Shown here: piece by piece, positions 5,624 through 63,424 of the stretch
How the letters are laid out: each line of letters opens with the position of its first letter
Numbering within the stretch: the stretch's first letter is position 1
DNA from: a candidate division Kazan bacterium RIFCSPHIGHO2_01_FULL_44_14
Lineage (GTDB): Bacteria > Patescibacteriota > Kazan-3B-28
DNA: 64,000 nt
Direction of reading: 5' to 3'
Assembly (NCBI GenBank): GCA_001771185.1
Contig: METB01000001.1
Coordinates: 439,200 to 503,199 of the forward strand
Position numbers and translations under genes: made by a program
The notes under the pieces: model-generated
The model's database searches: none
What the model saw: only the letters and a program-made list of their open reading frames with translations
What the model was told of the DNA's origin: nothing

Positions 5624-5624
5624 A

Positions 5625-8665: not shown

Positions 8666-8668
8666 CTA

Positions 8669-12868: not shown

Positions 12869-12882
12869 GGAGGTGATTCTGA

Positions 12883-43232: not shown

Positions 43233-43385
43233 ATGGGTGTTGTTCCACAATCTTGAAAGTTTGGATATCCAATTTTCCTAGGGATATAGGGATGTTAGTA
43301 CCGATAATCGCGGTTAAAAACGGGCAGATGCTCGAGTGCCGCGATTATCTACTCCTAGGAGCAAGAGATTGTGGAACAACCACCA
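43233..43385. repeat. Nested inverted-repeat structure (outer ~19-bp arms gtgttgttccacaatcttg / caagagattgtggaacaac; inner 11-bp arms gataatcgcgg / ccgcgattatc)
   Basis: The arms are directly visible. It lies just inside the candidate element boundary and upstream of gene 43447. Confidence 0.6.
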
Positions 43386-43446
43386 CGAGGTCTGCCCCTT
43401 TTTGATTTATATAATAATCGGCAGGTCATCGGGTAGGGAATCCACG

Positions 43447-44517: not shown

Positions 44518-45230
44518 AGAAAATCAAATCCGTCGAGCAATATGGTCAGTTATATATGAAACGATTTCTCCAGGACCAAATTGCTCACAAGGATGCTATT
44601 TATGATGACTGGCGAGAGGCCTTGGAGTTCTTGTTTTCCAAGGTCTTTTATCGGGGTAGGCGAGATGAGTTGTCAGAGAGATTTATGTGGGCAACTCTTA
44701 AAACTCTAAAAGAAATTGAGTTAGATCCGGACTATAACAAGCAATTACTTGATAATCGCCTACAATCCAATGGGGTGAACAATCACAAGGATCGCAAGAT
44801 GGTCTGCGAAGTTCTGGATTTCGTCTTTAATCTTCCCACTCCTTACGGTCGCAATATCGTTAAATACACCATTGAGCGGATTAAAAATGGGAAGATTCTA
44901 GACATCTTTAATGAACTGAATACGATTTATGCCATCGGAGACAAGCTATCCTCGTTCTATATCCGAGATGTGGCGTTGGTATTTGATTTAGAGGATAAGC
45001 TACTAGCAGATGACTTCAAATATTGTCAGCCTATCGATACATGGGTGAAACAAGTAGCGGTTAAGCTGGACCTTATTGCTCCCCAAGAAGGGGATGTGGC
45101 AACAATCAAGTCAGCCATTATAGATGCGTGTCGAGGGGCAAATGTATCACCCCTACTTTTTAACGCAGGGGCATGGATGGTCGGAGCTAAATCCTTCGAT
45201 TTGTTGATAGAGCGGTTTTCTACACAATAA
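44514..45230 (+). CDS. Hypothetical protein, possible helix-hairpin-helix DNA-binding module (LNTIYAIGDKLSSFYIRDVAL)
   Basis: ATGA overlap with the upstream nuclease-like gene. 238 aa. Confidence 0.4.
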   Translation: MKKIKSVEQYGQLYMKRFLQDQIAHKDAIYDDWREALEFLFSKVFYRGRRDELSERFMWATLKTLKEIELDPDYNKQLLDNRLQSNGVNNHKDRKMVCEVLDFVFNLPTPYGRNIVKYTIERIKNGKILDIFNELNTIYAIGDKLSSFYIRDVALVFDLEDKLLADDFKYCQPIDTWVKQVAVKLDLIAPQEGDVATIKSAIIDACRGANVSPLLFNAGAWMVGAKSFDLLIERFSTQ

Positions 45231-45258: not shown

Positions 45259-46638
45259 CTAGCGGGCTGAAGTGGGTTCATCGATAAGCTTGGTTAGGGT
45301 AGTTTTCTTATTGTCTTGTAGTGTCAGTTTGCCTTGGTTCAATATTACTTGGCTTTGGATGTTTGCTAGTATCTCTCGCTTTTGTTCATTACTACCTTCC
45401 CGGAGAATGTACTTGGCATACATTTTCAGGTCCACTCTTGGCATTTTGGAGGTGGCGGAATCTATCCCCAGCACTCCCTGCGTGAATTTATTGTAGCGGT
45501 CTATCTCTTCCTGCAACCTATCCTTCATCCCGATTCGATCTAGAGTCAGTTTATCGATAATCTCCACAAATTGTTCAATGAGGTCTGCCTCTCTGACATA
45601 AGGTTGTTTGCACCCGATTCTCTTGCTATCTGTGCAGTGATAGTAGACATGGCGATTCATCTCACCATTCTTTAATCGCTTGAATTTTTCTTCAGCACTG
45701 ACTCCGGCCCCGCACTGACCGCAGGTCATCATCCTTGTAAAGGCGAAGCACTTTTCACCATGACGGCCATGTGGGGGTTTAGAAATTCTAACTTGCACCT
45801 CATCAAATAACTCTTTGTTAATTAGTGGTTCGTGTTTGCCTTGGTAGCTTCCTTCGCCATAGGTATATTCGCCATAGTAGAAGCTATTCTTGAGAGTCAG
45901 AAAGATTGAACTTAGTGCCATCTTCTTGCCGCTTCGAGTCGTGAAGTTAGTTTCGCTATTAAGCCAATCTAAGATGTTCCTGCCGGAGTAGCCATGTTTG
46001 GCCACCTTATTGAAGATCTCTTTAATGGTGGGAGCTCTTTCTTTGTCGACCAAGATCGTGTTGTCGGCATAGTTGTTGAGATAGCCGAGTGGGGCGACTC
46101 CTGGTCGCCAGCCCATCTCACATTTGGTTCGCATCCCTCGTTTAACATTCACGCCCTTGTTATCGTTTTCCAATTTGGCTTGGGAACAGAGAATCATTAA
46201 GAGGAACTTCTCGTTAGGGGAGTTCCGGAATATCTGACCATGGGTTCTGATTTCGTGCAGAAGTCCTTGGTCCATAAGGTCGACCAAAGAGCCAAGGTCT
46301 CCGGCATTACGGCTCAATCGGTCTGGAGCCCATGTCATAATTCCATTGAAATCGCCTTCTCGGATTCTCATCAGAAGCTCAGTAAAGGCGGGTCTTTGGC
46401 CGGAGTCCTTAGCCGAGTGGCTTTCCTTGATAGTCTCTACTATCTCTATCCCATCCCTCTCAGCCATCGCCAACATCTCTTTGATTTGGCTGTCTATGGA
46501 GAGGGCTTGTCGTTCGTCCTGCTCTGAGGACTTACGGGCATAGAGACAGTACTTGGCTCCCTGTGGTTGCTCCATGGCTTCCGAAGACCCCTCGGGAGCT
46601 CCTGGAATCGTCTCGTTTTTCACCATATTTGCCTCCAT
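45259..46638 (-). CDS. Large serine recombinase (second copy, distinct sequence)
   Basis: The resolvase catalytic region CLYARKSSEQDE...DSQ, recombinase domain, and zinc ribbon (CGQCGAGVS...YYHCTD). The N-terminal start is uncertain (MEAN... or MEQP...). Confidence 0.8.
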   Translation of the reverse strand: MEANMVKNETIPGAPEGSSEAMEQPQGAKYCLYARKSSEQDERQALSIDSQIKEMLAMAERDGIEIVETIKESHSAKDSGQRPAFTELLMRIREGDFNGIMTWAPDRLSRNAGDLGSLVDLMDQGLLHEIRTHGQIFRNSPNEKFLLMILCSQAKLENDNKGVNVKRGMRTKCEMGWRPGVAPLGYLNNYADNTILVDKERAPTIKEIFNKVAKHGYSGRNILDWLNSETNFTTRSGKKMALSSIFLTLKNSFYYGEYTYGEGSYQGKHEPLINKELFDEVQVRISKPPHGRHGEKCFAFTRMMTCGQCGAGVSAEEKFKRLKNGEMNRHVYYHCTDSKRIGCKQPYVREADLIEQFVEIIDKLTLDRIGMKDRLQEEIDRYNKFTQGVLGIDSATSKMPRVDLKMYAKYILREGSNEQKREILANIQSQVILNQGKLTLQDNKKTTLTKLIDEPTSAR

Positions 46639-46742
46639 TTGTCTATAGGGCTATATCAAGGGTAAGGATGCCCGAAAATTGGCCAAAGTCCAGTCCCAAA
46701 ACGCTTTATTTTGAGTTATACTAAAGAAGTCAAATAACCCCT

Positions 46743-48980
46743 ATGGAGCTAGCAGACAACGAAAAGCGGGATATTATCAAGTACTTGGAGGCAGGGAAAC
46801 CCCTGCCAGACAAGTACCGCTTTTTGCTATTCGGGGATAAAAATGAGGTAGAGTTGGTCTGGAATGGTAAAACCGACGAGGTTACTAATGTGGCTCTGCC
46901 TTTTCAGGTTATAGAACAGGTGGACGAGGCTAGGAGTGAAAAAGAGGTAAAAATCCAGACGGGTCTATTTGATGAGGGTGGCCGTCAGATTGGAGGTTGG
47001 GTCAATAAGCTGATTTGGGGCGACAATAAGCTCATTCTTTCCAGCTTGAAGAATGGTCCCATCAGGGAAGAGATAGCGAGACAAGGTGGGATAAAACTGA
47101 TTTACATAGATCCGCCATTTGATGTCGGTGCTGATTTTTCTATGGATATTGAGATAGGTGATGAGCAATTTACCAAACAGCCAGGCGTATTAGAAGAACT
47201 GGCGTACAGAGATACATGGGGTAAGGGTGCTGATAGTTTTATCTCTATGATTTATGAGCGTCTAAAGTTGATGAGAGACTTATTGGCCGATGATGGCAGT
47301 ATATATGTGCATTGTGATGACAGATTGAGTGGGTATTTACGACTAGTAATGGATGAAGTTTTTGGAAAAAATAATTTTAGAAATCATATTATCTGGAAAC
47401 GCACCTCTTCACATAATGATTCTAAAAAGATTGGCAAGGTGTCAGATTCAATTTTTTACTACTCCAAGAGTGAAAATGCTATATGGAATCCACAATTTAG
47501 GCCTTACGATCAAACTTATCTTGATAACTTCTATCGGCATATCGAAAGCGACGGTCGTAAGTATCGTCTGCACCAAATAGAACGTAATCCAGCACTAGGT
47601 CTTCGTGAAAATCTAAAGTATGAATACAACAACTACACACCTCGGTATGGCTGGATGGTGGAGAGAGGGAAGCTTGAGGAACTTGATAAAAAGGGTATGC
47701 TGGTTTGGTCAAAAAACGGTAAACCCCAAAGGAAAATCTATATAGGCGAGGACACTGAAGGACAGCCGATTCATGATATTTGGGATGATATATCAGCAGT
47801 TGGTAGCCAGAGTAAAGAGAAGACTGATTATCCAACACAAAAACCAGAGTCATTGCTTGCAAGGGTTATTAGAACCTCTACTAATGAAGGTGACATCGTT
47901 GCCGACTTTTTTGTGGGTTCTGGTACTACTTTGTCCGTTGCCGAAAAATTGGGACGTAAATGGATTGGTAGTGATTTGGGAAAATTCTCCATTCATACTG
48001 CTCGCAAAAGAATGATTGGTGTTCAGCGGGAACTTAAAAAAGAGAATAAGGGTTATCGAGCGTTTGAGATTCTTAATCTTGGTAAATATGAGAGGCAATA
48101 TTATGTGGGAGCCAATCCCGATTTAAGAGATGAAGAAAAACAAAGACAGCTTGACCAAAAAGAGCAAGATTTCGAGAAGCTTATATTGGGCGCCTACAAG
48201 GCAGAGCCGGTGGACGGCTTCAAAACATTCAGAGGGAAGAAGGCCAGCCGATTGGTATCCATTGGGGCCATTAACTTACCGGTTACTCGTAGGTTTGTGG
48301 AAGAAGTCGTAGAAGAATGTCTCGAGAAGAAAATCACCAAGGTAGATATTTTAGCCTTTGAGTTTGAGATGGGTCTATTTCCCAAAATGCAGGAAGAGGC
48401 CAAGGACAAAGGTATTGATATGGCTCTTAAATATATTCCTCGAGATGTGTTTGACAAAAGAGCTATCGACAAAAATCAAGTTGTCTTCCATGATGTTTCC
48501 TTTATCGAGGTCAGGCCTATTATCAAGGGTAAAAGTGTGGCAATCGAGCTAACTGATTTCTCGGTTTTCTATAATCAGGATTCTGTCGCCCAGGTTGAAT
48601 CTCTACTCAAGAATGGTAACAATAAGATTGTGGTTGAAAATGGTCAGATTATTAAAGTGCTAAAAGACAAGGATGGCATAGTCACTCAGGAGGTACTAAC
48701 TAAGAAGTGGTCTGATTGGATCGACTACTGGTCTGTAGATTTCAATTTCGAGAGCAAGCAAGAGATTATCCGTATCCAGAAAGATGGTAAAACTGAGGAG
48801 GTTTGGACGGGAGATTATATATTTGAAAACGAATGGCAATCTTTCAGGACCAAAAAGGACCGTAAGCTGGATTTTGTAAGTGTTGCGACTGAAATGACAA
48901 AAGGTCGACATAAGGTTGCTATAAAAGTGGTCGATATCTTTGGCAATGACACTATGAAAGTTATGGAGGTAAATATCTAA
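46743..48980 (+). CDS. Type III restriction-modification methyltransferase (Mod-like, beta-class N6_N4 MTase) with a long C-terminal extension
   Basis: Motif IV IYIDPPFD comes ~265 aa before motif I FFVGSGTT, with a TRD-like region between. 745 aa. Confidence 0.8.
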   Translation: MELADNEKRDIIKYLEAGKPLPDKYRFLLFGDKNEVELVWNGKTDEVTNVALPFQVIEQVDEARSEKEVKIQTGLFDEGGRQIGGWVNKLIWGDNKLILSSLKNGPIREEIARQGGIKLIYIDPPFDVGADFSMDIEIGDEQFTKQPGVLEELAYRDTWGKGADSFISMIYERLKLMRDLLADDGSIYVHCDDRLSGYLRLVMDEVFGKNNFRNHIIWKRTSSHNDSKKIGKVSDSIFYYSKSENAIWNPQFRPYDQTYLDNFYRHIESDGRKYRLHQIERNPALGLRENLKYEYNNYTPRYGWMVERGKLEELDKKGMLVWSKNGKPQRKIYIGEDTEGQPIHDIWDDISAVGSQSKEKTDYPTQKPESLLARVIRTSTNEGDIVADFFVGSGTTLSVAEKLGRKWIGSDLGKFSIHTARKRMIGVQRELKKENKGYRAFEILNLGKYERQYYVGANPDLRDEEKQRQLDQKEQDFEKLILGAYKAEPVDGFKTFRGKKASRLVSIGAINLPVTRRFVEEVVEECLEKKITKVDILAFEFEMGLFPKMQEEAKDKGIDMALKYIPRDVFDKRAIDKNQVVFHDVSFIEVRPIIKGKSVAIELTDFSVFYNQDSVAQVESLLKNGNNKIVVENGQIIKVLKDKDGIVTQEVLTKKWSDWIDYWSVDFNFESKQEIIRIQKDGKTEEVWTGDYIFENEWQSFRTKKDRKLDFVSVATEMTKGRHKVAIKVVDIFGNDTMKVMEVNI

Positions 48981-49594
48981 TGACTGACTATGCTATCAAT
49001 TTGGAAGAGACTCTATCTATCAAAGATAGTTGGGGATATGAAACTGAAGTAGATGCAGTTATTTATCGCAACCAATTTGATAAATATTATCAGGCATACT
49101 CAAAGTCTGGTTTGCAGGAAGACCTAATGTTTAGTTTTATATTCCTTCAGATTTATATAGAGTGTTTTTTGCATGGCTGTATGAGGAAAATTGTTGAAAT
49201 GGAATTCAAGCCGCCTCGTATAAATGTGTACAAAGATTGGACTGGAGGAGAAAAGCGTTCGGTTCAAGACAAATTAGATGCCTTTGTGGGACTCTTTTTT
49301 AGTCTCATAACTGACAAGATCAACGATGATAAAGATGAAATTAAGAGACTCTTCGGTAGCATTAGCTATATCCGCAACCTACTAGTTCATGGCCACAAAG
49401 TTGCAATGTGGTCGAATTCTGATGGCTACTCTGGTATCAGTGAGGCTAAAGCATTCTTAACCTCAGATCAGTTGGGCAACACAGTCAAGGAGGCAAATAA
49501 ACTTGGGGCATTGTGGAATCAGTTATTGGACACAATTTTGCCACAACTCAAAGCATTACAAAGAGTGAGTGATTTTAAGTATAAAGAAATATAA
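48980..49594 (+). CDS. HEPN-like protein (Rx4H motif SYIRNLLVHGH) inserted between mod and res
   Basis: TAATG overlap with the mod stop, and 6 nt before the res start. It is all-alpha by composition. The HEPN assignment rests only on the Rx4-6H motif. Confidence 0.4.
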   Translation: MTDYAINLEETLSIKDSWGYETEVDAVIYRNQFDKYYQAYSKSGLQEDLMFSFIFLQIYIECFLHGCMRKIVEMEFKPPRINVYKDWTGGEKRSVQDKLDAFVGLFFSLITDKINDDKDEIKRLFGSISYIRNLLVHGHKVAMWSNSDGYSGISEAKAFLTSDQLGNTVKEANKLGALWNQLLDTILPQLKALQRVSDFKYKEI

Positions 49595-49600
49595 TTCGCC

Positions 49601-52291
49601 ATGGCATTACATCCTAATTTCCCAAAATCTCCCCATGCTATCTTGAACCCAGATTTACGCTGGTTTCCGGCAGATGAAGCATTGAGAGAGAAAGATTACA
49701 GCAAATTGTTGCCACCACTTGTGGCAAAGCTTCGTAAGGAAGTGGCAATTTGGCGTGACAAGAACTACGAGGGGGCCACGGATACCAGTAAGGGCTTATT
49801 GCAGTGGTGGTTCAAGACGGATCACCCCATGGATGATAGCAATGGCAGAACATACTTATTTGAATATTATTTCGCCCAGCGAGAAGCGGTAGAGACTGTT
49901 ATTTATCTCTATGAAATCGCTGGCGTTAAACAACCTTTAGATCTTCTGAAGTACGATAGCTCGGGAGCCATCTCTACTGGGATGTTCGATGAATCTTGGT
50001 TGAGATTTGTCATTAAGATGGCTACAGGTAGTGGCAAGACGAAGGTCTTAAGTTTGATATTGGCTTGGAGCTATTTCCATAAGATGTATGAAGAATACTC
50101 TCATTTGGCGAGAAACTTCCTAGTGATTACCCCGAACATTATTGTATTGGATCGTATCCGGTCTGATTTTGATGGACTCAAGATTTTCTTTCAAGATCCA
50201 GTTGTGCCAGATAACGGGTTTGAGGGTAAGAACTGGCGAGATGATTTTCAGCTAACACTTCATATTCAGGACGAGATTGGGGTAGTCAATAAAACGGGAA
50301 ACATTTTTCTTACCAATATCCATCGGGTCTATGAAGGTAATGTGACTGAACCGACTTTTAAAGATGAAGACACTACTAACTATTTTCTAGGTAAAAAGCC
50401 TACTGGGGCGACCAATGAATCAAAAGTGGATCTTGGTCAGATTGTGCGTGATGTAGATGAGCTGGTAATCCTGAATGATGAAGCCCATCATATTCACGAC
50501 CCGAGAATGGCCTGGTTTAAGTCCATCGAAGACATCCATAATCGGCTGAAGATGAAGGGGGTGTCGTTATCGCTTCAGCTAGATGTGACAGCCACTCCCA
50601 AACACGATAATGGTTCTATTTTTGTACAAACAGTTAGTGATTATCCGCTGGTCGAAGCCATCCATCAGGATGTGGTGAAGCATCCGGTTCTGCCGGATTC
50701 GGCTAGTCGAGCCAAGCTTCAGGAGCAAAAAAGCTCTATCTTCACCGAAAAGTATAAAGACTATATCCATCTGGGCTTTCTGGAATGGAAAAAGGTATAT
50801 GAGCAACACAAGAAACTCGGCAAGAAAGCTGTTCTGTTTGTAATGACTGATGACACTAAAAATTGCGATGAAGTGGCTGAGTATTTACATAAAACCTATC
50901 CCGAGTTTAGTAATCAAGATTCAGTACTGGTCATTCACACCAAGAATAATGGTGAAATCTCCGAGAGCGTAACTGGCAAAAATGAAGAAGAGCTTAAAGA
51001 GCTTCGTCTAGCGGCCAATAGTATCGATTCATTTGATAGCCCACACAAGGCAATTATTTCTGTGCTGATGTTGAAAGAGGGTTGGGATGTAAAGAATGTA
51101 ACGACTATTGTTGGACTTCGAGCCTATTCTGCCAAAAGCAATATCTTGCCCGAGCAAACACTAGGCAGAGGTCTGCGACGAATGTATAGGGCGGAGAATA
51201 TTACTGAGATGGTGAGCGTGGTGGGTACCGATGCGTTTATGGACTTTGTTGAGTCTATTAAAAGCGAGGGTGTGGAATTGGAACGTCGCAAGATGGGTGA
51301 GGGTACTGAACCTAATGCTCCGTTAGTCATTGAGGTTGATAACGAAAATACCAAGAAGGATATCGCTAAACTGGACATTGAGATTCCTGTTCTGACTCCT
51401 CGGATCTATCGGGAATACAAAAACCTGTCGGATTTGAATTTGGCAGGTCTTCAGTACAAGAAAATCGAGCTTAAACAATTCTCTAAAGAGGAACAGCGAG
51501 AGATTGTTTTTAGGGACATAGCTACCGGAAATATTACCCATACCACCAAGTTTGATACGGAGTTTACGCCGAATTATCAGAGTGTTATTGGCTACTTTAC
51601 GCAAGTGATTATGAAGGAACTTCGGCTGGTTAGCGGTTATGATGTTTTGTATGGCAAGGTAAAAGAATTTATTCAAAGTAGTCTCTTTACCAAGTCGGTA
51701 GATTTGGAAGACCTTAACATACTGCGTAACTTGTCAGAACTAGAAGTGACCAAGACTATAGTTGAGACTTTCAAAAAAGCTATCAACGCTCTGACAGTTC
51801 TGGATAAAGGGGAGGCCGAAATCAGGGACTACATTAAGGTCAGTAAGAGTCGGCCGTTTGTCACCAGAGAGCAGGGTTATCTTTTGCCCAAGAAAAGTGT
51901 CTTTAACAAAATTGTCGGAGACAGTCATCTTGAGCTAGAGTTTGCCAGTTTTCTAGAAGAAGCCGAGGATGTAGTTTCTTATATCAAGAATTATTTTTCT
52001 GTCTACTTCCGAATTGACTATCAAAACAGTAGTGGTGATATCTCTAACTTTTATCCCGACTTCATCGTTAAGTTGTCTGAGAAAGAGGTCTATATTGTCG
52101 AGACTAAAGGTAGGGAAGACCTGGACGACATTGAGAAAATAAACCGACTTCGACAGTGGTGTCAGGATATCAACGAAGTACAAAAGAAGGCCACCTACAA
52201 AATGCTATATGTGAAGCAAGAGGATTGGGATAAGTTAGACCATAAACCAGGGTCTTTTGCCGAGGCTGTCCGACTTTTTGAAGATAAATAA
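49601..52291 (+). CDS. Type III restriction enzyme Res subunit (SF2 helicase plus C-terminal PD-(D/E)xK nuclease)
   Basis: Walker A ATGSGKTKV, DEAH box LNDEAHHI, C-terminal PDFIV...YIVETKG. Confidence 0.85.
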   Translation: MALHPNFPKSPHAILNPDLRWFPADEALREKDYSKLLPPLVAKLRKEVAIWRDKNYEGATDTSKGLLQWWFKTDHPMDDSNGRTYLFEYYFAQREAVETVIYLYEIAGVKQPLDLLKYDSSGAISTGMFDESWLRFVIKMATGSGKTKVLSLILAWSYFHKMYEEYSHLARNFLVITPNIIVLDRIRSDFDGLKIFFQDPVVPDNGFEGKNWRDDFQLTLHIQDEIGVVNKTGNIFLTNIHRVYEGNVTEPTFKDEDTTNYFLGKKPTGATNESKVDLGQIVRDVDELVILNDEAHHIHDPRMAWFKSIEDIHNRLKMKGVSLSLQLDVTATPKHDNGSIFVQTVSDYPLVEAIHQDVVKHPVLPDSASRAKLQEQKSSIFTEKYKDYIHLGFLEWKKVYEQHKKLGKKAVLFVMTDDTKNCDEVAEYLHKTYPEFSNQDSVLVIHTKNNGEISESVTGKNEEELKELRLAANSIDSFDSPHKAIISVLMLKEGWDVKNVTTIVGLRAYSAKSNILPEQTLGRGLRRMYRAENITEMVSVVGTDAFMDFVESIKSEGVELERRKMGEGTEPNAPLVIEVDNENTKKDIAKLDIEIPVLTPRIYREYKNLSDLNLAGLQYKKIELKQFSKEEQREIVFRDIATGNITHTTKFDTEFTPNYQSVIGYFTQVIMKELRLVSGYDVLYGKVKEFIQSSLFTKSVDLEDLNILRNLSELEVTKTIVETFKKAINALTVLDKGEAEIRDYIKVSKSRPFVTREQGYLLPKKSVFNKIVGDSHLELEFASFLEEAEDVVSYIKNYFSVYFRIDYQNSSGDISNFYPDFIVKLSEKEVYIVETKGREDLDDIEKINRLRQWCQDINEVQKKATYKMLYVKQEDWDKLDHKPGSFAEAVRLFEDK

Positions 52292-52298: not shown

Positions 52299-54014
52299 AT
52301 GTCATTTCTACCAAAAATCTTTAATGCATTATCTCGGCATACCAACAAGGGGGTTGCGGTTGCTACGGTGGTTGGGGATACGAATAGTATCGAAGTCACT
52401 CCAGAATACAATAAGGTATTAGATTTAATTGAGGGTGGAGCTCCTATCACACTAGTTAGTGGTGCTGGTGGAACTGGCAAATCGACACTTATCAAATTTC
52501 TGGAAAAGACCCTGCGTCGTAAGATAGTGAAATTGGCACCAACGGGGGTGGCCGCGATTAACGTTGGCGGACAAACACTTCATTCATTTTTTCAGCTTCC
52601 GCACCAAATTCTCACCAAAGACCATGTGAAGCGGATATATCAGAAGAAACTGTATCAGCAGATTGGGTTGCTGGTTATTGACGAGGTTTCTATGGTGCGA
52701 CCAGATGTTTTGGATGCCATAGATCACTTTTTGCGGATCAATGGTCCTGACGGAGCAAGACCATTCGGAGGGGTTCAGCTATTGCTGATAGGGGATCATT
52801 TTCAGCTTCCTCCTGTGACCCCGACATCAGAGGATGCCGTTCTTAGGCAAATGGGATACAACTTTGAGCGGCACTACTGGTTTCATGCTAAGTGTGTTCA
52901 AGATCTTCCGATTGAATATGTTGAGTTAACTCATATCTATCGGCAAACCGATGCCCATTTTATTAACCTCTTAAGTAAGATTCGGGTTGGTAATGATTTG
53001 GCCAATGTGATTAAGGAAATCAATGAGAAATGTTTTGATACCGAATATCAATCGGATTTATGTACTACAGTTACGGCGACCAATAGGGTGGCTGATTTTA
53101 TTAACCAAGCTAAGTTTGACGCCCTGCCGGGGCAGGTTTATAAATTTGAGGGTTATATCGATGGCAAGTTTGCCGCCGAGAAGGAAAAACTACCCTCTCC
53201 ATCGGAGCTGTTTTTGAAAAAAGGAACTCGGGTGATGTTCACTAAGAACGATTCAAGGAAGAGGTGGGTTAACGGAAGTACAGGTATTGTCGAGGAGGTC
53301 GACGAGAAAGAAATCAGAGTAAAAATGCTAAACTCTAGTTTGGTTTATTCGGTAGAGAAAGCCAAGTGGCAAAATCTGAAATATGTTTACAACCAAAAGA
53401 CGGAGAAGTTAGATACGGAGATTGTTGGGGAATATGTACAATATCCGCTGAAATGGGGATGGGCTATTACTATTCATAAAGCTCAGGGCAAAACTCTAGA
53501 CGAGATTATTATCGACCTAGGTAATGGAGGGGCGTTTGAGACAGGTCAGGTCTATGTGGCTTTGAGCCGTTGCCGGACATTGGAGAATATTCATCTTAGA
53601 CGACCTCTGAATCTTAGTGATGTAAAGTGGTGTCCGATTATCAAGGAGTTTGACGATTATCTGTCTGGTCGTATGGAGAAACTAGTGTCTATTGGTGAAG
53701 GTGAGCTTCCAGAGGACACTGACGACTTAGCGAAGGCGCTGGAGAAGAGGAGAGCACTAAGTGGCGAACTACATCAGGTAATAGCCAAGATTGGTAAAGC
53801 CATATCTAGCTCAGGTATCGATATAGCGGGTCTCCCGGGGAATGAGAGTAGGGATAAATCCTACGAGCCGTGGGATGAGACAGAAGACGATATGTTGCGT
53901 CTTCGTTTTCAAGAAGGAATACCAATAAAAGATATTGCCAAGCTTCATGCGCGGACTATTGGAGCCATACGCTCCAGATTAGACAAATTGGGGGTTACGG
54001 TGGAAGTCGGGTAA
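52299..54014 (+). CDS. Pif1/RecD-family SF1 helicase with a C-terminal sigma-70-region-4-like HTH
   Basis: Walker A SGAGGTGKST, Walker B LLVIDEVSM, and a C-terminal segment (YVALSRCRTLENIHL) typical of Pif1-like helicases. C-terminal HTH LRLRFQEGIPIKDIAKLHARTIGAIRSRL. Confidence 0.7.
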   Translation: MSFLPKIFNALSRHTNKGVAVATVVGDTNSIEVTPEYNKVLDLIEGGAPITLVSGAGGTGKSTLIKFLEKTLRRKIVKLAPTGVAAINVGGQTLHSFFQLPHQILTKDHVKRIYQKKLYQQIGLLVIDEVSMVRPDVLDAIDHFLRINGPDGARPFGGVQLLLIGDHFQLPPVTPTSEDAVLRQMGYNFERHYWFHAKCVQDLPIEYVELTHIYRQTDAHFINLLSKIRVGNDLANVIKEINEKCFDTEYQSDLCTTVTATNRVADFINQAKFDALPGQVYKFEGYIDGKFAAEKEKLPSPSELFLKKGTRVMFTKNDSRKRWVNGSTGIVEEVDEKEIRVKMLNSSLVYSVEKAKWQNLKYVYNQKTEKLDTEIVGEYVQYPLKWGWAITIHKAQGKTLDEIIIDLGNGGAFETGQVYVALSRCRTLENIHLRRPLNLSDVKWCPIIKEFDDYLSGRMEKLVSIGEGELPEDTDDLAKALEKRRALSGELHQVIAKIGKAISSSGIDIAGLPGNESRDKSYEPWDETEDDMLRLRFQEGIPIKDIAKLHARTIGAIRSRLDKLGVTVEVG

Positions 54015-54034
54015 TAACGTAACTAAGTAAATCA

Positions 54035-55519
54035 ATGCAGCTCTCAAAATCTGATTACATGTTGTTTCTACGCCATCCGGCTTGGTTATGGCTCAAGAAA
54101 CACGCCAAAGATAAATTACCCCCTGTGGATGAAGATACTCAGGCGATTTTTGATGCTGGTTTCCTGTTCGAGACATACGCTGAACAGCTTTTCCCTGATG
54201 CAACAAAGTTAGAATACGATCGAGGGGACTATCAGGCATATGGAAAGCTAACTGCCGAGACAAAACAAGCGATAGCATCCGGAGCTACCACCATTATGCA
54301 AGGTCGTTTTGAGGCTGGTGATATCACGTGCATTTGTGATGTGCTGGTCCGAGTCAAGGATAATGAGTTTGACCTTTATGAAATTAAATCTAGTACTCAC
54401 GCTAAGCCCGAGCATGAGCCTGATTTAGCTTTTCAGATGGTAGTGCTAGAAGATTGCGGTTATACGGTTAACAAAATCTATGTCGTTCATGTAAATAATG
54501 AATACGTTAGAAACGGAGAGGTCACAGCCAAGGATCTAGCCAAGATGACTGAAGTTATTGACCAAGTTAAAGCATTGCGAGAAACTACCAGGGAGAATAT
54601 CAAACAAGCTCTGGAAGTTATGAATTCCAAAGAATGTCCAGATATCTCACCATCCTTGGCGAAGCTGGGAGCTTTTAATGATTGGCTGGGAATCTTCAAG
54701 ACTCTGGCAGAGGTAGAAGAATATAGTATTTATGATCTCTGTTCTCCTGGTGCAAGTAAGATTGGCAAACTGGAAGCATTGGGCATCAAGCAGATAAAAG
54801 ATATCCCAGAGGATTTTGCTCTAAGTGTAAAACAGCAAAGCCAAGTTCGGGCAACTAAGACTAACGAAGTATGTGTGGACAAGCCAAAGATTAAGCAGTT
54901 TTTGTCTGAGCTAAAATATCCTCTATATTTTCTTGATTACGAGACCCTATCTAGCGTAGTGCCATATTTCGATGGGCTAGGGCCTTATAAGCAATTGCCA
55001 TTCCAATATTCTCTGCATGTTATTGAAAAGCCGGGTGGTGAAGTAAATCATTTTGAATATTTGCATCAGGACAACAGCAACCCAGCACAACCAATCTCGG
55101 AATCGCTGAAGTCGCAAATCGGTGATAGTGGCACAGTCTTGGTTTGGTTTGAGGGTTTTGAAAAAACCTGCAACGAGCTATTGGGTGCCCTGCTCCCAGA
55201 GTTCACAACTTTCTTCAAAGACCTGAATGACCGCATCGTTGACCTAATGATTCCTTTTTCGACTTGCTCCTATGTCCACAAAGATTTTTTCGGGAGTACC
55301 TCGATTAAACAGGTATTACCGGTCCTGATTCCTGAACTTTCATATAAAGATTTAGATATCCATGCTGGTGGAGCAGCTCAACGGCTATGGATGGAGGCGG
55401 TATTGGATGGAAAAAGAGCTGATGAAAAAGATAAGATTCTTAAGGACTTAAAACAATACTGCGAGTTGGATACCTACGCGATGGTGAAGATATTCCAGTT
55501 CATTTCTGACATCAAATAG
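54035..55519 (+). CDS. DUF2779-like protein with an N-terminal Cas4/RecB-like PD-(D/E)xK nuclease motif
   Basis: CDVLVRVKDNEFDLYEIKSST gives D...ExK. The C-terminal YFLDYETL...PFQYSLH region is recalled as DUF2779-like. Confidence 0.5.
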   Translation: MQLSKSDYMLFLRHPAWLWLKKHAKDKLPPVDEDTQAIFDAGFLFETYAEQLFPDATKLEYDRGDYQAYGKLTAETKQAIASGATTIMQGRFEAGDITCICDVLVRVKDNEFDLYEIKSSTHAKPEHEPDLAFQMVVLEDCGYTVNKIYVVHVNNEYVRNGEVTAKDLAKMTEVIDQVKALRETTRENIKQALEVMNSKECPDISPSLAKLGAFNDWLGIFKTLAEVEEYSIYDLCSPGASKIGKLEALGIKQIKDIPEDFALSVKQQSQVRATKTNEVCVDKPKIKQFLSELKYPLYFLDYETLSSVVPYFDGLGPYKQLPFQYSLHVIEKPGGEVNHFEYLHQDNSNPAQPISESLKSQIGDSGTVLVWFEGFEKTCNELLGALLPEFTTFFKDLNDRIVDLMIPFSTCSYVHKDFFGSTSIKQVLPVLIPELSYKDLDIHAGGAAQRLWMEAVLDGKRADEKDKILKDLKQYCELDTYAMVKIFQFISDIK

Positions 55520-55647
55520 CTCCATACTTTGTGCAACAGCTCTGGCGGTGTAAAATAGGGCCAGTGAAACGATTTAGGAGACAATAAGCAAACGCAACCA
55601 AGTCGGGTCCGGAAACGGACGAGACGGAATGGTTGTGTTTTTTGTAT

Positions 55648-55722
55648 GCCGAGGTAGCTCATTGGTAGAGCGAGAGCTTGAAAAGCTCTGCGTAGGAGGT
55701 TCAATTCCTTCCCTCGGCACCA
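55648..55722 (+). tRNA. tRNA-Phe (anticodon GAA)
   Basis: GCCGAGG acceptor, D-arm GCTCATTGGTAGAGC, anticodon loop TTGAAAA, T-loop GGAGGTTCAATTCCTTC, CCA encoded. Confidence 0.8.
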
Positions 55723-55724
55723 AT

Positions 55725-55799
55725 GCCCCCGTAGGCTAACGGATAGACCAAGTCGCTTCTATCGACAGAGTGAGGGTTCGATTCCTTCCGGGGGCACCA
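55725..55799 (+). tRNA. tRNA-Arg (anticodon UCU), weak D-stem
   Basis: GCCCCCG/CGGGGGC acceptor, anticodon loop CTTCTAT, T-loop GAGGGTTCGATTCCTTC, CCA encoded. It lies 2 nt after tRNA-Phe. Confidence 0.65.
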
Positions 55800-55825: not shown

Positions 55826-57448
55826 TTACCACCTTCTGGAGGCGCGTCCCCAGCCGTGAGGGTCATTTTCCTCTAGATTATCGAGTAATCCACCTGATCG
55901 TCCTCTCCGTTTTCTGGTCTCGGTTTCTAGAGTTTCCCTCTCCCAGCCAGTAGTGCCATCAGGGGAGTAACAAAGATCACCATTTCTATCTCGGTATACG
56001 ATACCGATATTACAGTTAATCTTGTCATCCGCCATTACCCTAAGCACTAGCATTGTAAACGCATCGGCTAAGTCATCGTATCTTTCTCGGCCAAAACCCG
56101 TAATCTGATGAATCAACTCTTCTGCTCCTTTACGAGGGAACAATACTTTACCAGTTTGAATCAGGGCAGTGGTGGTGGACAGACGAGACCGTTTATCATT
56201 CTTACTGGTAAATTCCTCGGCGGTGATACCTTGGGTTTTAAGGTGTTGACCGAAGGCCGCTTGGTAAGCCGTGCTGTCGAAACAGAGTTTTACCGTGTAA
56301 TGTTGTTTAGTCCAAGACTTGTAGGATTCGATAACGGTTTGCACCGATGTCGGGAAGTCCATCCGCCGATTAATTGGGCCGGGCAGAATGTTGATTTGTA
56401 AACCATTCCTGCCACTATAAACCAGTGCTGTAACCACGGCAGTGTAGTTAGCTGATTCTTTTTCCGAAATCGCTAGATCAACCGCCATCGAAACATATCG
56501 CAATTTGGGGTCGTTCATACCCGGGGTTTGGTTTGGCAACTCATCATAGTAATGTAGCCACTCGGGATGCACAACTCGTTCGGCATCGGAAATAATCTTC
56601 AACAGATATTCTCGGCTCCAATCGATATCATCTGCTACCGTGCGCTTTTCATCATTGATGGCATCTTCGTCGGGATACTTGCCTGGCCAGAGACAATTGC
56701 CGTCGTAATCGATGAGGGGGTAGAACTCAAACACTCCGTCTCGTTTACTCTCTCGGATTTCTTTGCGTAATCGCATAATTAACGAGTCGTCGTGCAGTAA
56801 GTTTCCGATGACGACAATATTGGTGCGCCGGTCGCCAGTCGGAATTAGATCGCCCTTAAACCAGCGATAAGTTTTATCTCGGCTATCTTGGGTGGCGACA
56901 GAGTTCAAATCTTCGACATCATCACAGATGATTAAATCTGGTCGATAGGTGCCATACCTGATGCCTCGGATACCTTCTTCAACCGATGCCACTACAATTC
57001 TAGCTTTGTATTTAGACAGCTCAATCGTGCCACCACCCCACTTGGTGTTGCTACTTCGGAAAGGTCCCATATCTGCTTTAAGCAGAGTGTTGTCGGTTAG
57101 CTCCGCCTTCAAGCTTTCCAGTAGTCGTCTCGCCATGTCTTGAGTTTTGCTGGTGATAAGAATGTGCTTTTTTTGGAGCTTGCCCATAATCGCCCACAGA
57201 GGATAGGACAAGCTAATTAGGGTGCTCTTGCCCGATGCCCTAAAGGCACAAATTACTAGTGTCTTTATTTTAGTGTCTTGAGTTAGCTCGAAGATCTCTT
57301 TCTGGAAATCGGCGGTTTCGTATTGCACATAGTGGGGGAGATAGATACTGAAAAACATCAGATGAGCGTCCCTGGCCGCTTCAATCCGCATCCCCTGGTT
57401 GTTGATAATCTGACTAATCCACTTATCTCGTTCGTCATTGTTTAACAT
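55826..57448 (-). CDS. Phage terminase large subunit
   Basis: N-terminal ATPase with Walker A (AFRASGKST) and a C-terminal RNase-H-like nuclease region. 540 aa. Confidence 0.75.
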   Translation of the reverse strand: MLNNDERDKWISQIINNQGMRIEAARDAHLMFFSIYLPHYVQYETADFQKEIFELTQDTKIKTLVICAFRASGKSTLISLSYPLWAIMGKLQKKHILITSKTQDMARRLLESLKAELTDNTLLKADMGPFRSSNTKWGGGTIELSKYKARIVVASVEEGIRGIRYGTYRPDLIICDDVEDLNSVATQDSRDKTYRWFKGDLIPTGDRRTNIVVIGNLLHDDSLIMRLRKEIRESKRDGVFEFYPLIDYDGNCLWPGKYPDEDAINDEKRTVADDIDWSREYLLKIISDAERVVHPEWLHYYDELPNQTPGMNDPKLRYVSMAVDLAISEKESANYTAVVTALVYSGRNGLQINILPGPINRRMDFPTSVQTVIESYKSWTKQHYTVKLCFDSTAYQAAFGQHLKTQGITAEEFTSKNDKRSRLSTTTALIQTGKVLFPRKGAEELIHQITGFGRERYDDLADAFTMLVLRVMADDKINCNIGIVYRDRNGDLCYSPDGTTGWERETLETETRKRRGRSGGLLDNLEENDPHGWGRASRRW

Positions 57449-57848
57449 TTTTCCCTCCTATCGGTTTACCTTTATATATTCCAGCCAATGACAGAGCTTT
57501 TTTGATGAGAGCCCGTTGGGCTGGTGTTAACGGACTATCTTTGTGTTCCACTTTCGCCATTACTTGCAATTTCTCGGCATAAGACGAATGTCGATTGCGG
57601 AGCCAAAACATCAGGGCAGTCATGTTTTGGTTCTTAATTGCCGTCAATAATTGAGACTCCGCAAGGTCGTTGATCAGGTCGCATCCCTCTGCCAACGCCT
57701 TGTCCGCTTGCTGGGCAAAGGTTTTACTTTCTCGTTTCCACCGATAGAAGGTCGCTCGGCTGATGCCAGTTTTCTGGCAAGCGGTCTGAACAATAGGTGT
57801 TCGGCGGAGAATTTCCAGTACTTCTTCTTTTTGGCTCATTGGTTTCAT
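57435..57848 (-). CDS. Putative terminase small subunit / HTH DNA-binding protein
   Basis: HTH (ACQKTGISRATFYRWKRE) immediately upstream of, and overlapping, the large-terminase gene. Confidence 0.5.
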   Translation of the reverse strand: MKPMSQKEEVLEILRRTPIVQTACQKTGISRATFYRWKRESKTFAQQADKALAEGCDLINDLAESQLLTAIKNQNMTALMFWLRNRHSSYAEKLQVMAKVEHKDSPLTPAQRALIKKALSLAGIYKGKPIGGKNVKQ

Positions 57849-59170
57849 CGTACTTTTACTCCTTTCTGCCCAGTCAGTTTTTCCCATCTATTCCGGATTA
57901 CACAAGCGTATGTAGGAGATTTTTCGGAAATATAACATTTTCTTCCGAGTTTTTCACAAGCGATTAAAGTTGAACCTGAGCCACCGAATGGTTCAATCAC
58001 CCAGTCACCACGCTTGGTCAACACCTTGATGTAGGGGATTAATATCTCAATTGGCTTAACGCCAAAGATAATCCCTTGACCAGAACTCTTCTCATCCGCC
58101 ACATTGAACTCGATGAAGTCAGTCGGCTGGTACTTCTTGCCTTTTTCATACCCCTCCCATTGGGGTTTACCTTGGATGGCAAACAACGCTGTTTCGTATT
58201 CGTTTTGGAGTAGCTCATCCTCTGGCTCTAAGTTGAAGGATGGTTCACCGCCTTGTCCGACCATGGCGATATCGTGTTTGCTGAAAAACTTATATTTAGC
58301 CGCGAATCCTTGGTTGCGATTGGGAGTGTGCCAAACGATCATGTTTTTTACTTTCCAATGTTTGGCCATCTCACCCCAAATGGTGGGGATATTCTTCCAG
58401 TTCTCATAACATAGGATTGAAAAGTTGGGAGAAGCCATTTTAGCGATGTTCGTCATCCAAAGCTCCGTAAAGTTATCCGGCAACTCATCGGTCTCCAAAT
58501 ACTTGCGGTCTCGCTTGAACCCGAATCCCTCAGTCGGTTTGCCATGCTTCTTCTTGCCTTTGAGATAATCCAAAATGTACGGGGGGTCCGTGAGGCAGAG
58601 AGATGGCGGTGTTTCGCAGACCAGTCCAGTAATATGAGCTTCGTCAGTTGAGTCGCCACAAGCAAGATAATGATTACCTAATTTCCAGAGGTCGCCCTTT
58701 TGGATGTCTATATCGGTGATACCTATCTTGTCTAACTCTTTTTGTAGGTCGAACACTTCGGGGGTCTCGTCGATGCCAGTAATCTCGTCCATTTCTTCAC
58801 TGGAAAAACCAACATCAGTTAGCAGCGCTGGATCAAATTCTGCCAGCAAGTCTAGGTCCCAAGCGCCAAGGTTGCGGTTTAACCTCAAGTTCAGTTCTCG
58901 TTCACGCTCTATCTCGGGGATGTTCACAAACACTACAGGCACTTCTTTGATGCCGAGGTCTTTGGCCACCTTCAAGCGGAAATGACCCCCTATAATAATG
59001 TTCTCTCTCCCGGGAGCATTATTGCAGAGGATGGGATCGACCATCCCAAACTTACGGACGCTGTCAGTCAGCTGTTGAATAGCTGACTCATCCCAACGAC
59101 GAGGATTATATGTGCTCGGCTTGAGCTCGGAAACCGGCAGGTAGCGAACGGCCAGATTATCTTTATCCAT
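57845..59170 (-). CDS. ParB-like nuclease domain fused to a beta-class DNA methyltransferase
   Basis: N-terminal ParB/Srx motif (IIGGHFRL), central DPPY (CLTDPPYILDY), C-terminal motif I (IEPFGGSGST). A fusion common in phages. Confidence 0.75.
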   Translation of the reverse strand: MDKDNLAVRYLPVSELKPSTYNPRRWDESAIQQLTDSVRKFGMVDPILCNNAPGRENIIIGGHFRLKVAKDLGIKEVPVVFVNIPEIERERELNLRLNRNLGAWDLDLLAEFDPALLTDVGFSSEEMDEITGIDETPEVFDLQKELDKIGITDIDIQKGDLWKLGNHYLACGDSTDEAHITGLVCETPPSLCLTDPPYILDYLKGKKKHGKPTEGFGFKRDRKYLETDELPDNFTELWMTNIAKMASPNFSILCYENWKNIPTIWGEMAKHWKVKNMIVWHTPNRNQGFAAKYKFFSKHDIAMVGQGGEPSFNLEPEDELLQNEYETALFAIQGKPQWEGYEKGKKYQPTDFIEFNVADEKSSGQGIIFGVKPIEILIPYIKVLTKRGDWVIEPFGGSGSTLIACEKLGRKCYISEKSPTYACVIRNRWEKLTGQKGVKVR

Positions 59171-59260: not shown

Positions 59261-59800
59261 TTATTTACTCGGTTGTTCCGGTTCGTGCCATTCGATGCCG
59301 AAGTCCTTGAGAAGCTTTTTTATTTCGAACGGAGACATCTCCAAGTGGTCTATAATCTGTAAAGTGTGTTTGGTACAAACAGGCATAAAATAATGCCTGA
59401 ATGCTTTCCAATACTTCATCTTGCGAAAGGCCTCGTCGATTGGGACTTCGGTAGCTTCATCAATAGTCTCAGATATATCATCCTTGCTTACTTTGTCCCC
59501 TGTACGTCGATTCAGTAAGTAGTTCATCAATCTATCGGGGAGGGATTGATAATGAAACTTTTGGATCTCCTTGTCTATCTCTAATGCGTCAATAACTAAG
59601 AAAAGTTTGCATCCTCTCTTGACCAACTTAACCATTGCTGGTTTCCCATCAGTAGCTTCTTCGACGGAACGATAGATAATAACTGGTGGATGGTTCGGTT
59701 CGTAGCAAGCCTTTTTTATATTGCCCCGTTGAGCCCATAAGATTGTCTGGATAAAGACCTCGAGCTCTTTTTTGTGGTTTGGTTTTGTGGGTACCTTCAT
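59261..59800 (-). CDS. Hypothetical phage-associated protein
   Basis: 179-aa ORF with an RBS-like ggagga upstream. Confidence 0.4.
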   Translation of the reverse strand: MKVPTKPNHKKELEVFIQTILWAQRGNIKKACYEPNHPPVIIYRSVEEATDGKPAMVKLVKRGCKLFLVIDALEIDKEIQKFHYQSLPDRLMNYLLNRRTGDKVSKDDISETIDEATEVPIDEAFRKMKYWKAFRHYFMPVCTKHTLQIIDHLEMSPFEIKKLLKDFGIEWHEPEQPSK

Positions 59801-60059
59801 TTTGTCCTCCTAATCTTAAGCTGATATAAAAAATCCCTAAATCGAAAGCAGTTACATCAGTAACCTGACTTTCGCTTTTCTAGGGGTTTCCTTACTCAGC
59901 GAAAGAAACAGACAGTTTCTTCAATATCGAATTGTGACTCTACATTGAGATTGTACAACCGCATCATAATGGATGTCAAATGGCCGTCCGTGACAAGGTT
60001 ATCACCTAGAGGCAAGAGTATAATGGTTAAGAGCAGATGCTCTTAATTTTTTGAGACTT

Positions 60060-62504: not shown

Positions 62505-62509
62505 ATATC

Positions 62510-63424
62510 ATGGATCAAAAGCGTAGCCAGAAGCACCATTATTTGCCAGTTAACTATCTTAATGGTTTTACTGACGACCAAGGTCTTTTCTTCGTTTATG
62601 ATAAAAAAGAGGACCAAATTGTTCAGAAGGCGGTCACGCCAAAGTCGGTATTTTTTGAGAACAATCTCAACACCATAGCATTAAAAGATGAGTGTTCAGA
62701 TTTCCTTGAGGGTCTCTATACCCAAACGGAGAATATATTGTGGGCTCCTTTTGAAACTATCAGACGATCCAAGTCTACTGATCAGATCCAACCTCTAGAC
62801 AGAATGCATTTGTACCTTTTTCTTACATTGCTGTACTGGAGGTTGCCCAGCAATTTCAATCAGGTAAAGAGCTTTTCAAGTAAAGCATTTGCCCACAATA
62901 ATGAAATCGATTACTTTCAGCTAAAATCTCGTAATGGGGATGTCTCCAATGAGATGATTGAGCAGATGAGAGGGTCAGAGTCGTTTAATAAATCAGTAAG
63001 ACTGATACTTCCATTTGCTCCATTCCTTAAGAACAAGGAGTGGTTTTTGTCAGTTGTGAAATGGAAGTTCGTCTATATAGAGCCGAATACGACAGCTTTT
63101 ATTACTGGAGATAATCCGATTATTCTCAAGGATGAGAGTGGTGAGGCCGTTGATCCGCTGGGCGAATTTATTTTTCCGATATCTAGTAATATTCTGTTAG
63201 CGAATTGCGACCATGCTATCAAAAAGGAGTTGGATCCAGCATTCGTTCTACAGGCCAACATTGCAATCATGGAAAATGCCAAGCGGTTTGTAATTTGCCG
63301 GAGCAAAGAATTTCTTCAGGGGTTAGTTAAATACTACAAAATATATAGTCAATACGGGAAAACTCCAACGATAGCGCCAGAGGTATTTGCTATGCTTATA
63401 GATACAGAGCTGGAGTATAAATAG
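62510..63424 (+). CDS. DUF4238-like protein (N-terminal HHYLPxxYLxxF motif)
   Basis: QKHHYLPVNYLNGF matches the recalled DUF4238 N-terminal signature. 304 aa, beginning 6 nt after the upstream gene. Confidence 0.45.
   Translation: MDQKRSQKHHYLPVNYLNGFTDDQGLFFVYDKKEDQIVQKAVTPKSVFFENNLNTIALKDECSDFLEGLYTQTENILWAPFETIRRSKSTDQIQPLDRMHLYLFLTLLYWRLPSNFNQVKSFSSKAFAHNNEIDYFQLKSRNGDVSNEMIEQMRGSESFNKSVRLILPFAPFLKNKEWFLSVVKWKFVYIEPNTTAFITGDNPIILKDESGEAVDPLGEFIFPISSNILLANCDHAIKKELDPAFVLQANIAIMENAKRFVICRSKEFLQGLVKYYKIYSQYGKTPTIAPEVFAMLIDTELEYK

Follow-up and report, generated by a model that had tools for sequence, protein, structure and literature searches.

A Pif1-family helicase beside a predicted DUF2779 dual nuclease in a Patescibacteria defence island: most likely neighbours, not a new two-gene immune system

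Does a helicase gene that is directly followed by a nuclease gene within a bacterial defence island form an immune system together with it, or do both genes only share a location? This question is raised by a contig of the candidate division Kazan bacterium RIFCSPHIGHO2_01_FULL_44_14 (METB01000001.1), of which a stretch of 64,000 nucleotides (nt), called the window in the following, was analysed. Here, a Pif1-family helicase (52299..54014, + strand) is followed on the same strand, after a gap of 20 nt, by a gene for a DUF2779 protein of 494 amino acids (aa; 54035..55519). A preliminary description, made from the DNA letters only, had reported this arrangement correctly and had compared the two genes to the two-component defence systems Hachiman and Gabija. 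Both genes are fresh members of known families that adjoin each other in a defence island, and most likely they are neighbours at a hotspot of this island rather than a new immune system made of two genes. With a probability of roughly 0.6, helicase and DUF2779 are real and probably active enzymes which are juxtaposed and not dedicated partners. In this way, a plausible-looking candidate for a new defence system is removed as unsupported.

The neighbourhoods of both genes in other genomes were surveyed, each scan taking in 80 loci. For DUF2779, species-representative loci (L009-L088, about 1.3 Mb) were used and Pif1 was sought by a hidden Markov model (HMM) of the helicase, and for Pif1 the loci were metagenomic. 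In other species, Pif1 was the upstream neighbour of DUF2779 in 0 of 72 cases and the downstream neighbour in 2 of 71. Throughout the DUF2779 loci the helicase HMM detected Pif1 in L022 and L057 only, both times downstream, and these two proteins belong to a different subfamily, which carries a 2B domain and is 31–33% identical to the window helicase. Among the metagenomic Pif1 loci, a DUF2779 gene adjoins Pif1 in L117 only, which is 1 of 78; the neighbours are heterogeneous and no conserved Pif1 partner was found. The genes of a conserved two-gene system are neighbours across divergent genomes, which Pif1 and DUF2779 are not. The preliminary description had itself named a lack of co-occurrence elsewhere as the observation that would speak against a pair, and this is essentially what the surveys returned. 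Furthermore, since the median gap to any same-strand neighbour is 11–15 nt in the 80 related loci, the spacing of 20 nt is uninformative in itself and means little in the compact genomes of the candidate phyla radiation (CPR).

The nearest relatives of the window show where the two genes part. Locus L010 shares with the window DUF2779 (94% aa identity), a ParB-methyltransferase (ParB-MTase; 94%) and a large serine recombinase (87% aa, 83% nt, to 46676). In a blastn comparison, only the stretches 45304-46676 and 54025-55552 of the window were aligned, meaning that homology ends after the serine-recombinase gene and restarts 10 nt ahead of the ATG of DUF2779. The slot in between is filled in L010 by a 587-aa N6_N4 methyltransferase and a 755-aa ResIII protein, and Pif1 is absent. 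Because the alignment breaks at these two points and the content of the slot differs, the segment 46677..54024 (+ strand) is a replaceable cassette, which places the helicase in the exchangeable part and DUF2779 in the backbone. Here, the slot has conserved flanks, with the serine recombinase on the left and DUF2779 on the right. No att-like (attachment-site) repeats were evident by eye at the cassette borders, for which no systematic repeat search was made.

The same separation is seen in further relatives. The nearest non-identical helicase (74%; L005, L006) stands in the order 3' end of a homologous Res, Pif1, TerL, with TerL directly adjoining Pif1, and no DUF2779 gene is present. The order Pif1 and then DUF2779 was found only in near-identical relatives (L001, L172 and L089-L091). 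DUF2779 homologues of 70–72% identity have no Pif1: they are preceded by a Type I restriction-modification (R-M) system and a UvrD helicase in L002/L029, accompanied by AAA_15 ATPase cargo in L215 and by a Type III R-M system with a helicase of superfamily 2 (SF2) in L216, and surrounded by housekeeping genes in L004.

What DUF2779 does have is a characteristic position. Its immediate upstream neighbours lie on the same strand in 63 of 72 cases and comprise ResIII (8), HsdR (4–5), GmrSD (3), HerA (3), MmeI/Eco57I (2) and AAA_15/21 proteins, as well as REase_I, MzaA and Avs4 as identified by PADLOC; R-M systems of Types I, III and IIG are all represented. The downstream neighbours are housekeeping genes, such as those for DsbA-like thioredoxins, proteases, BipA and PheRS. 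Since defence genes dominate upstream and housekeeping genes downstream, DUF2779 is the fixed edge of a defence-cassette hotspot of Patescibacteria, with the cassettes located on its 5' side. It could serve as a simple anchor for mining the immune systems and defence islands of CPR bacteria, and this anchor behaviour is the most reusable result of the analysis.

Within the window, five genes on the same strand extend across 46.7 to 55.5 kb, and their junctions are, in order, a 1-nt overlap and gaps of 6, 7 and 20 nt. The first three encode the methyltransferase Mod of a Type III R-M system (46743..48980; PF01555, N6_N4_Mtase, E=1.3e-46; PADLOC MTase_III, E=9e-108), a protein of 204 aa (48980..49594) and the restriction subunit Res (49601..52291; ResIII, E=4.6e-16, and RE_endonuc; PADLOC REase_III, 1e-20), and they are followed by helicase and DUF2779. 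Pfam and PADLOC thereby find Mod and Res in one operon, as is typical of Type III R-M, and the helicase directly downstream of it, as had been proposed. The serine recombinase (45259..46638, - strand) lies upstream of Mod in divergent orientation, and the identical public gene shows Resolvase, Recombinase and Zn_ribbon_recom domains. The region also holds a PDC-S11-like gene, a DUF4238 gene and terminase-like genes, and it is a defence island. For the small gene between Mod and Res no family match was obtained in Pfam, PADLOC or NCBIfam. Its position is occupied in homologous Type III cassettes by a RiboL-PSP-HEPN gene (L094) or a HEPN gene (L211), and with a HEPN gene it aligns weakly at the motif level only (E=0.09). 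The candidate HEPN-like Rx4H motif (IRNLLVH) together with the HEPN genes in the same slot suggests a HEPN RNase embedded in the R-M operon.

A scan of 46.5-56 kb for promoters and terminators yielded nothing above the shuffled expectation, also between helicase and DUF2779. As the homology to L010 starts just 10 nt before the ATG, DUF2779 has no conserved private promoter in the window. Because neither a terminator nor such a promoter is seen, the five genes are probably co-transcribed in this genome, and any cooperation, for example a helicase feeding single-stranded DNA (ssDNA) to the nuclease, would thus be opportunistic.

The DUF2779 protein matches PF11074 at aa 298-423 (E=9.1e-37; 126.6 bits at a cutoff of 23.3; profile positions 1-126 of 126), and its close homologues, all from Patescibacteria/CPR, carry the name DUF2779. 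In the N-terminal half, a match to Cas4 (PF01930, aa 101-186, E=1.1e-4) lies right at the cutoff; PADLOC models of Cas4 match weakly (best 8.9e-7), and the NCBIfam model UU173 stays under its cutoff (82 vs 225 bits). Because a sequence profile run against the PDB sequences gave only spurious DnaJ matches, a fold search was used. The AlphaFold2 model has a predicted local distance difference test score (pLDDT) of 93.6. Here, Foldseek related the N-terminal half to Cas4 (4R5Q, 3.5e-5; 8D3L, 7.9e-5; 4IC1), human EXO5, ACE1 (9IAC) and the nuclease domains of AdnAB, with a probability of 1.0 against 4R5Q, 8D3L, 7LW9 and 9NP6, and the C-terminal half to RNase T. The structure prediction proposed as a check in the preliminary description is thereby consistent with a Cas4-like and an RNase T-like half.

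The conserved residues are in line with these folds. Throughout 85 homologues, D102, E116 and K118 are invariant and display the PD-(D/E)xK motif of Cas4, so that the claim of an N-terminal Cas4-like D...ExK motif ahead of a C-terminal DUF2779 region stands. Y475 and D479 are likewise invariant, and D301 and E303 are nearly so (at least 90%). All features of a DEDD(y) exonuclease are present, namely the DxE of Exo I, an acidic residue in Exo II, the Yx3D of Exo III and the RNase T-like fold, with E376 or D403 as the putative third acidic residue. The cysteine quartet of the Cas4 iron-sulfur (Fe-S) cluster is not conserved in these 85 sequences, and the cysteines that are conserved, C379 (nearly invariant) and C476 (invariant), both belong to the C-terminal domain. 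DUF2779 is predicted to be a Cas4/EXO5-like PD-(D/E)xK nuclease (54035..54634, + strand) fused to a DEDDy 3'-5' exonuclease (PF11074 core; 54917..55516, + strand).

Earlier work on the family has described this two-nuclease architecture (PMC13621843, PMC3985635). DUF2779 has been grouped with 3'-5' exonucleases that carry a DUF83 PD-(D/E)xK domain as fusion partner (PMC3985635), and MMSYN1_0389, the family member of the minimal cell JCVI-syn3.0, is quasi-essential, the best HHpred match of the DUF2779 C-terminal domain being MrfB (PMC13621843). The window protein shares with PF11074, UU173 and MMSYN1_0389 the Cas4-like N-terminus, the DEDDy C-terminus and the D...ExK and DEDD-Y residues, and the Fe-S cysteines of Cas4 are lost in the UU173 family and MMSYN1_0389 as well (PMC13621843, PMC3985635). 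In contrast to the mycoplasma protein, it is shorter (494 aa) and located at a defence hotspot. With Cas4, EXO5 and the nuclease domains of AddB and AdnAB it has the PD-(D/E)xK fold and the catalytic triad in common, although matches at sequence level are marginal, and it differs from all of these by the missing Fe-S cluster and the fused DEDDy exonuclease. Unlike Cas4, the window protein has no CRISPR-Cas surroundings: no cas genes were found among its neighbours by Pfam, PADLOC or public annotation, and no CRISPR or tandem repeats in 40-64 kb of the window.

A role of DUF2779 in a phage replication module, considered in the preliminary description, is not borne out, as 50,697 phage genomes contain no match. 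On the other hand, DUF2779 is present on 32 plasmids, mostly of Arcobacter. Two Arcobacter plasmid loci (L213, L214) encode DUF2779 proteins 33–36% identical to that of the window, adjoining either SbcCD-like genes, large ATPases and a dGTPase, or a PD-(D/E)XK nuclease and a Type I R-M system; Pif1 is absent among these plasmid neighbours. Because of these neighbours, the defence-like context of DUF2779 reaches beyond CPR bacteria.

The helicase comprises 571 aa when read from its ATG, whereas public gene calls start it at a TTG at 52281, which results in 578 aa. It matches the Pfam family PIF1 (PF05970, E=2.3e-27; 96.5 bits at a cutoff of 25.9), and in phmmer searches it finds solved structures of bacterial Pif1 proteins with E-values from 4.5e-100 (8BNS, aa 30-484) to 1e-71, 5FTB, 5FHD and 6S3E being among them. 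Walker A (GAGGTGKS, aa 55-62), Walker B (D128-E129), the Pif1 signature DEVSMVRPDVLDAIDHFLR and the motifs QLPPV, TIHKAQGKT and YVALSRCR all occur in it and do not vary across an alignment of 22 sequences. Judged by its sequence, this is a genuine Pif1 helicase of superfamily 1B (SF1B), in agreement with the first assignment to the SF1 Pif1/RecD family on the basis of Walker A and B.

Ordinary Pif1 relatives come from many phyla, have about 475 aa and are 44–52% identical over the core at aa ~30-450. In comparison to the bacterial enzymes of known structure (Bacteroides BaPif1, 5FTB/5FHD; Thermus oshimai, 6S3E; 8BNS), the window helicase has the same full SF1B core with all motifs, but lacks the N-terminal leader of about 40 aa common in homologues. 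Furthermore, typical homologues stop near aa 450-480, whereas the window protein is about 120 residues longer. In the AlphaFold2 model, this extension consists of a long helix, a disordered linker and a confidently predicted three-helix bundle (aa 527-563, 53877..53987, + strand; pLDDT 84-95). The preliminary description had called it a sigma-region-4-like helix-turn-helix (HTH). An additional HTH is indeed supported by the model, while its match to Sigma70_r4 (E=8.5e-4 to 3.5e-3) reaches 17-19 bits only and stays below the gathering cutoffs of 24.1 and 25.7 bits (PF04545, PF08281), which rules out membership in sigma-70 region 4 and leaves that name an acceptable approximation. An exhaustive search retrieved 948 homologues of this domain, frequently in tandem arrays of 2-8 copies, which are annotated as Myb_DNA-binding (PF00249) and Myb_DNA-bind_6 (PF13921), with cross-matches to Sigma70_r4 and GcrA, and which are fused to SF2 helicases, HNH, 3'-5' (DEDD) exonuclease and TnsA-like nucleases. 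Owing to these annotations and the sub-threshold sigma score, the HTH is better regarded as a putative prokaryotic Myb/SANT-like DNA-binding module with a predicted three-helix fold. Among the helicase homologues listed, the tail with this HTH is common only to P0122 (74% identical) and P0147 (43%); the HTH-bearing helicase forms 2 clusters at 74% identity or more, the next relatives being at 52% or less. Some Pif1 relatives bear a topoisomerase-type zinc ribbon in place of the Myb-like tail. The Pif1 variant with a Myb-like HTH represents a further lead.

Taken as neighbours, both enzymes can be given a plausible function. DUF2779 would be a resident, conserved end-processing nuclease of Patescibacteria which anchors the defence hotspot. 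Like its quasi-essential relative in mycoplasma, it may serve repair or recombination by trimming the two strands at DNA ends, with a 5' activity contributed by the PD-(D/E)xK domain and a 3'-5' activity by the DEDDy domain, as fold, conserved residues and the quasi-essentiality of the family suggest. On its 5' side, restriction and defence cassettes in the same orientation would be inserted and exchanged, presumably by homologous recombination between the conserved flanks. The Pif1 helicase would be cargo, namely the last gene of the cassette of Mod, 204-aa ORF (open reading frame), Res and Pif1 between serine recombinase and DUF2779, and would act as a 5'-3' ssDNA translocase, as its family implies, tethered to DNA by the Myb-like HTH.

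Named defence systems do not account for the two genes. Scans of both genes and their neighbours with PADLOC, Pfam and NCBIfam returned no named system for the pair, in agreement with the preliminary description, which had not assigned one; PADLOC gave only generic helicase-core matches (RecD, PDC-S68, PDC-M16A, PDC-S53) besides the weak Cas4 matches. Hachiman and Gabija are likewise two-gene systems of helicase and nuclease in defence islands, but HamB is an SF2 and GajB a UvrD-like SF1A helicase, whereas the window helicase is a Pif1 of SF1B, and the nucleases HamA and GajA are unrelated to DUF2779. The PADLOC models of HamA/HamB and GajA/GajB do not match the window pair. As no PADLOC system matches and the pair is not conserved, the proposed helicase-nuclease system is poorly supported. 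A further comparison is Dna2, which joins a PD-(D/E)xK nuclease and an SF1B helicase in one protein; if the window pair acted together, it would bring the same two activities, a 5'-3' SF1B helicase and a Cas4-like nuclease. This is an analogy with homology at superfamily level only: in the window the genes are separate, their linkage is not conserved, a 3'-5' exonuclease is added and the Fe-S domain is missing. Compared by description, the repair pair MrfA/MrfB of B. subtilis resembles the window genes in joining a helicase to an exonuclease of the DEDD class (DEDDh in MrfB), but MrfA is a DExH helicase of SF2 and MrfB has no PD-(D/E)xK domain.

Several observations weigh against mere juxtaposition. 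DUF2779 followed by Pif1 is found in L022, L057 and L117 with gaps of 11-97 nt and two Pif1 subfamilies, so the adjacency recurs above naive expectation and cooperation is a minority possibility. In L117, both genes appear to be part of a tight operon with a Type ISP-like methyltransferase and a HerA-like protein, and in L211 a Pif1 gene and a gene for a NERD-nuclease follow a homologous Res. Moreover, the position of DUF2779 3' of defence cassettes and its Arcobacter plasmid neighbours could reflect a defence function, and a conserved promoter region ahead of the gene is missing. Due to the cases of L022, L057, L117, L211 and L094, a dedicated pair, an accessory of the Type III system and a shared accessory nuclease stay as rivals.

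Two of these loci are described here in their own right. The operon of L117 (67-7948) contains genes for the Type ISP-like methyltransferase/specificity protein (891 aa), the HerA-like ATPase (744 aa), DUF2779 (504 aa) and Pif1 (480 aa), whose neighbours overlap by up to 4 nt or stand up to 11 nt apart, and is a candidate multi-gene system containing both families. The L211 locus (3935-13496) harbours Mod, HEPN, a 126-aa ORF, Res (77%), GmrSD_N, a Pif1 of the 2B-domain subfamily and a protein with a NERD nuclease domain, and hence another helicase-then-nuclease pair beside the Res family of the window.

It is possible, but unlikely, that the Type III R-M system uses the Pif1-Myb helicase as a functional accessory, the unit being Mod, the HEPN-like protein, Res and Pif1, with a helicase that, for example, clears or unwinds DNA for Res or processes the restricted DNA. 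The helicase does lie within the swapped cassette, 7 nt after Res, and this junction is kept in L005, L006, L001 and L172. In L094, a Mod (56% identical) and a Res (65%) stand beside a 48% Pif1 in convergent orientation, and in L211 the homologous Res is followed by GmrSD and then Pif1. However, orientation and helicase subfamily differ among these cases, and classical Type III enzymes of the EcoP15I type require no additional helicase. In addition, Res homologues of 73–78% identity are very numerous in Patescibacteria, with at least 120 clusters, while the helicase at 74% or more has two and is nearly unique, and L210 and L212 show the order Mod-x-Res without Pif1. The helicase is therefore a rare add-on even to the Res family of the window.

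An unlikely reading as well is that DUF2779 serves as a shared accessory or effector nuclease, which is co-transcribed with any defence cassette upstream and finishes the DNA ends, in analogy to RecBCD acting after restriction or to ACE1 acting with pAgo. The same-strand upstream neighbours at a median gap of 11 nt, the strong enrichment of defence genes upstream and not downstream, the start of L010 homology so close to the ATG and the defence-like plasmid neighbours would all fit. ACE1, which is also a structural match (9IAC), reportedly provides a precedent for an accessory nuclease of the Cas4 family (PMC12094033). Nevertheless, a core gene flanking an insertion hotspot would give the same pattern, close spacing is general in these genomes, some loci have a sigma-70 gene or another housekeeping gene upstream, and in a laboratory minimal cell free of phages the mycoplasma representative of the family is quasi-essential. 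As a testable hint, DUF2779 may process DNA ends downstream of restriction. An extended version, in which DUF2779 is a common end-processing nuclease across Patescibacteria and deliberately the co-transcribed last gene of interchangeable cassettes and a shared finisher for many immune systems, and recruits Pif1 in some lineages (the window, L022, L057 and L117) into a split machine similar to Dna2 or AddAB, is decidedly unlikely.

That both genes form a dedicated split helicase-nuclease machine of the Dna2, AddAB or AdnAB kind for defence or repair is improbable. Here, DNA ends would be unwound by a 5'-3' helicase for the DEDDy and PD-(D/E)xK domains, which would degrade the two strands. This would be in line with the common strand, the distance of 20 nt without a terminator in between, the independent adjacencies in L022, L057 and L117, the succession of Pif1 and NERD-nuclease in L211, and an N-terminal fold resembling the nucleases AdnAB, EXO5 and Cas4, which work with helicases; both Pif1 genes within the about 1.3 Mb of DUF2779-centred sequence directly adjoin DUF2779, for which a rough estimate is p~0.01. 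On the contrary, the arrangement is absent in 78 of 80 DUF2779 loci and 77-78 of 80 Pif1 loci, the closest relatives of each gene occur without the other, gene order and helicase subfamily vary, the spacing is typical of compact genomes and no PADLOC system matches. Improbable to the same degree is that the block as a whole belongs, as cargo, to an integrative element resembling a phage satellite, composed of genes for ParB-MTase, a TerS-like and a TerL-like protein and the large serine recombinase, whose replication or recombination DUF2779 and Pif1 would serve: although at least 6 IMG/VR contigs carry these four genes without interruption, cargo stands between TerL and recombinase in L187, L191, L194 and the window, and of 80 DUF2779 loci 8 have a ParB-MTase no more than 10 kb away and 13 a serine recombinase nearby, most DUF2779 genes stand in housekeeping surroundings with no module nearby, their placement with respect to the module differs between loci, neither att sites nor ends of an element are defined, and the missing phage matches are joined by a lack of virion and replication genes nearby.

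The juxtaposition reading leaves the four-gene module as a further lead of its own. In the window, it consists of the TerL-like, HTH TerS-like and ParB_N-MTase genes (55826..59170, - strand) and the serine recombinase (45259..46638, - strand), here interrupted by the + strand block, and it recurs, usually contiguous but sometimes with defence cargo between TerL and recombinase, in many Patescibacteria-like contigs (L184-L197). Its flanks contain R-M genes, reverse transcriptases, ATPases and host genes such as those for FtsA and FtsZ. These flanks are free of capsid, portal and tail families, which rules out a prophage as an explanation of the terminase genes; because virion genes are missing nearby, the module may be a satellite-like or integrative element. 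From the placement between an R-M operon and phage terminase genes, a role in defence or anti-defence had been suggested, of which the defence island is retained, while the phage context gives way to this four-gene module. Contigs bearing the module are flagged as viral by IMG/VR. Twelve IMG/VR contigs carry DUF2779, look like CPR chromosomal fragments and are flagged as viral because of TerL.

Between DUF2779 and TerL, ARAGORN detects genes for tRNA-Phe(GAA) and tRNA-Arg(TCT) (55648..55799, + strand). The pair is also present in L010 (11755-11995), there with an additional tRNA-Arg(CCT), and absent from L001, in which DUF2779 and TerL are only 50 bp apart; it may represent an attachment or recombination site. 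Two other slots vary in comparison to L010: one upstream of the recombinase (43336-45230) with the PDC-S11-like protein and a 238-aa ORF, and one beyond ParB-MTase (59261-63424) with a 179-aa ORF, an 817-aa protein without family match and the DUF4238 protein. Furthermore, TerL of the window (55826-57448) is only 59–61% identical to its counterparts in L010 and L172, while the flanking TerS, ParB-MTase and DUF2779 reach 85–95%, which indicates a probable replacement of the TerL allele inside the module.

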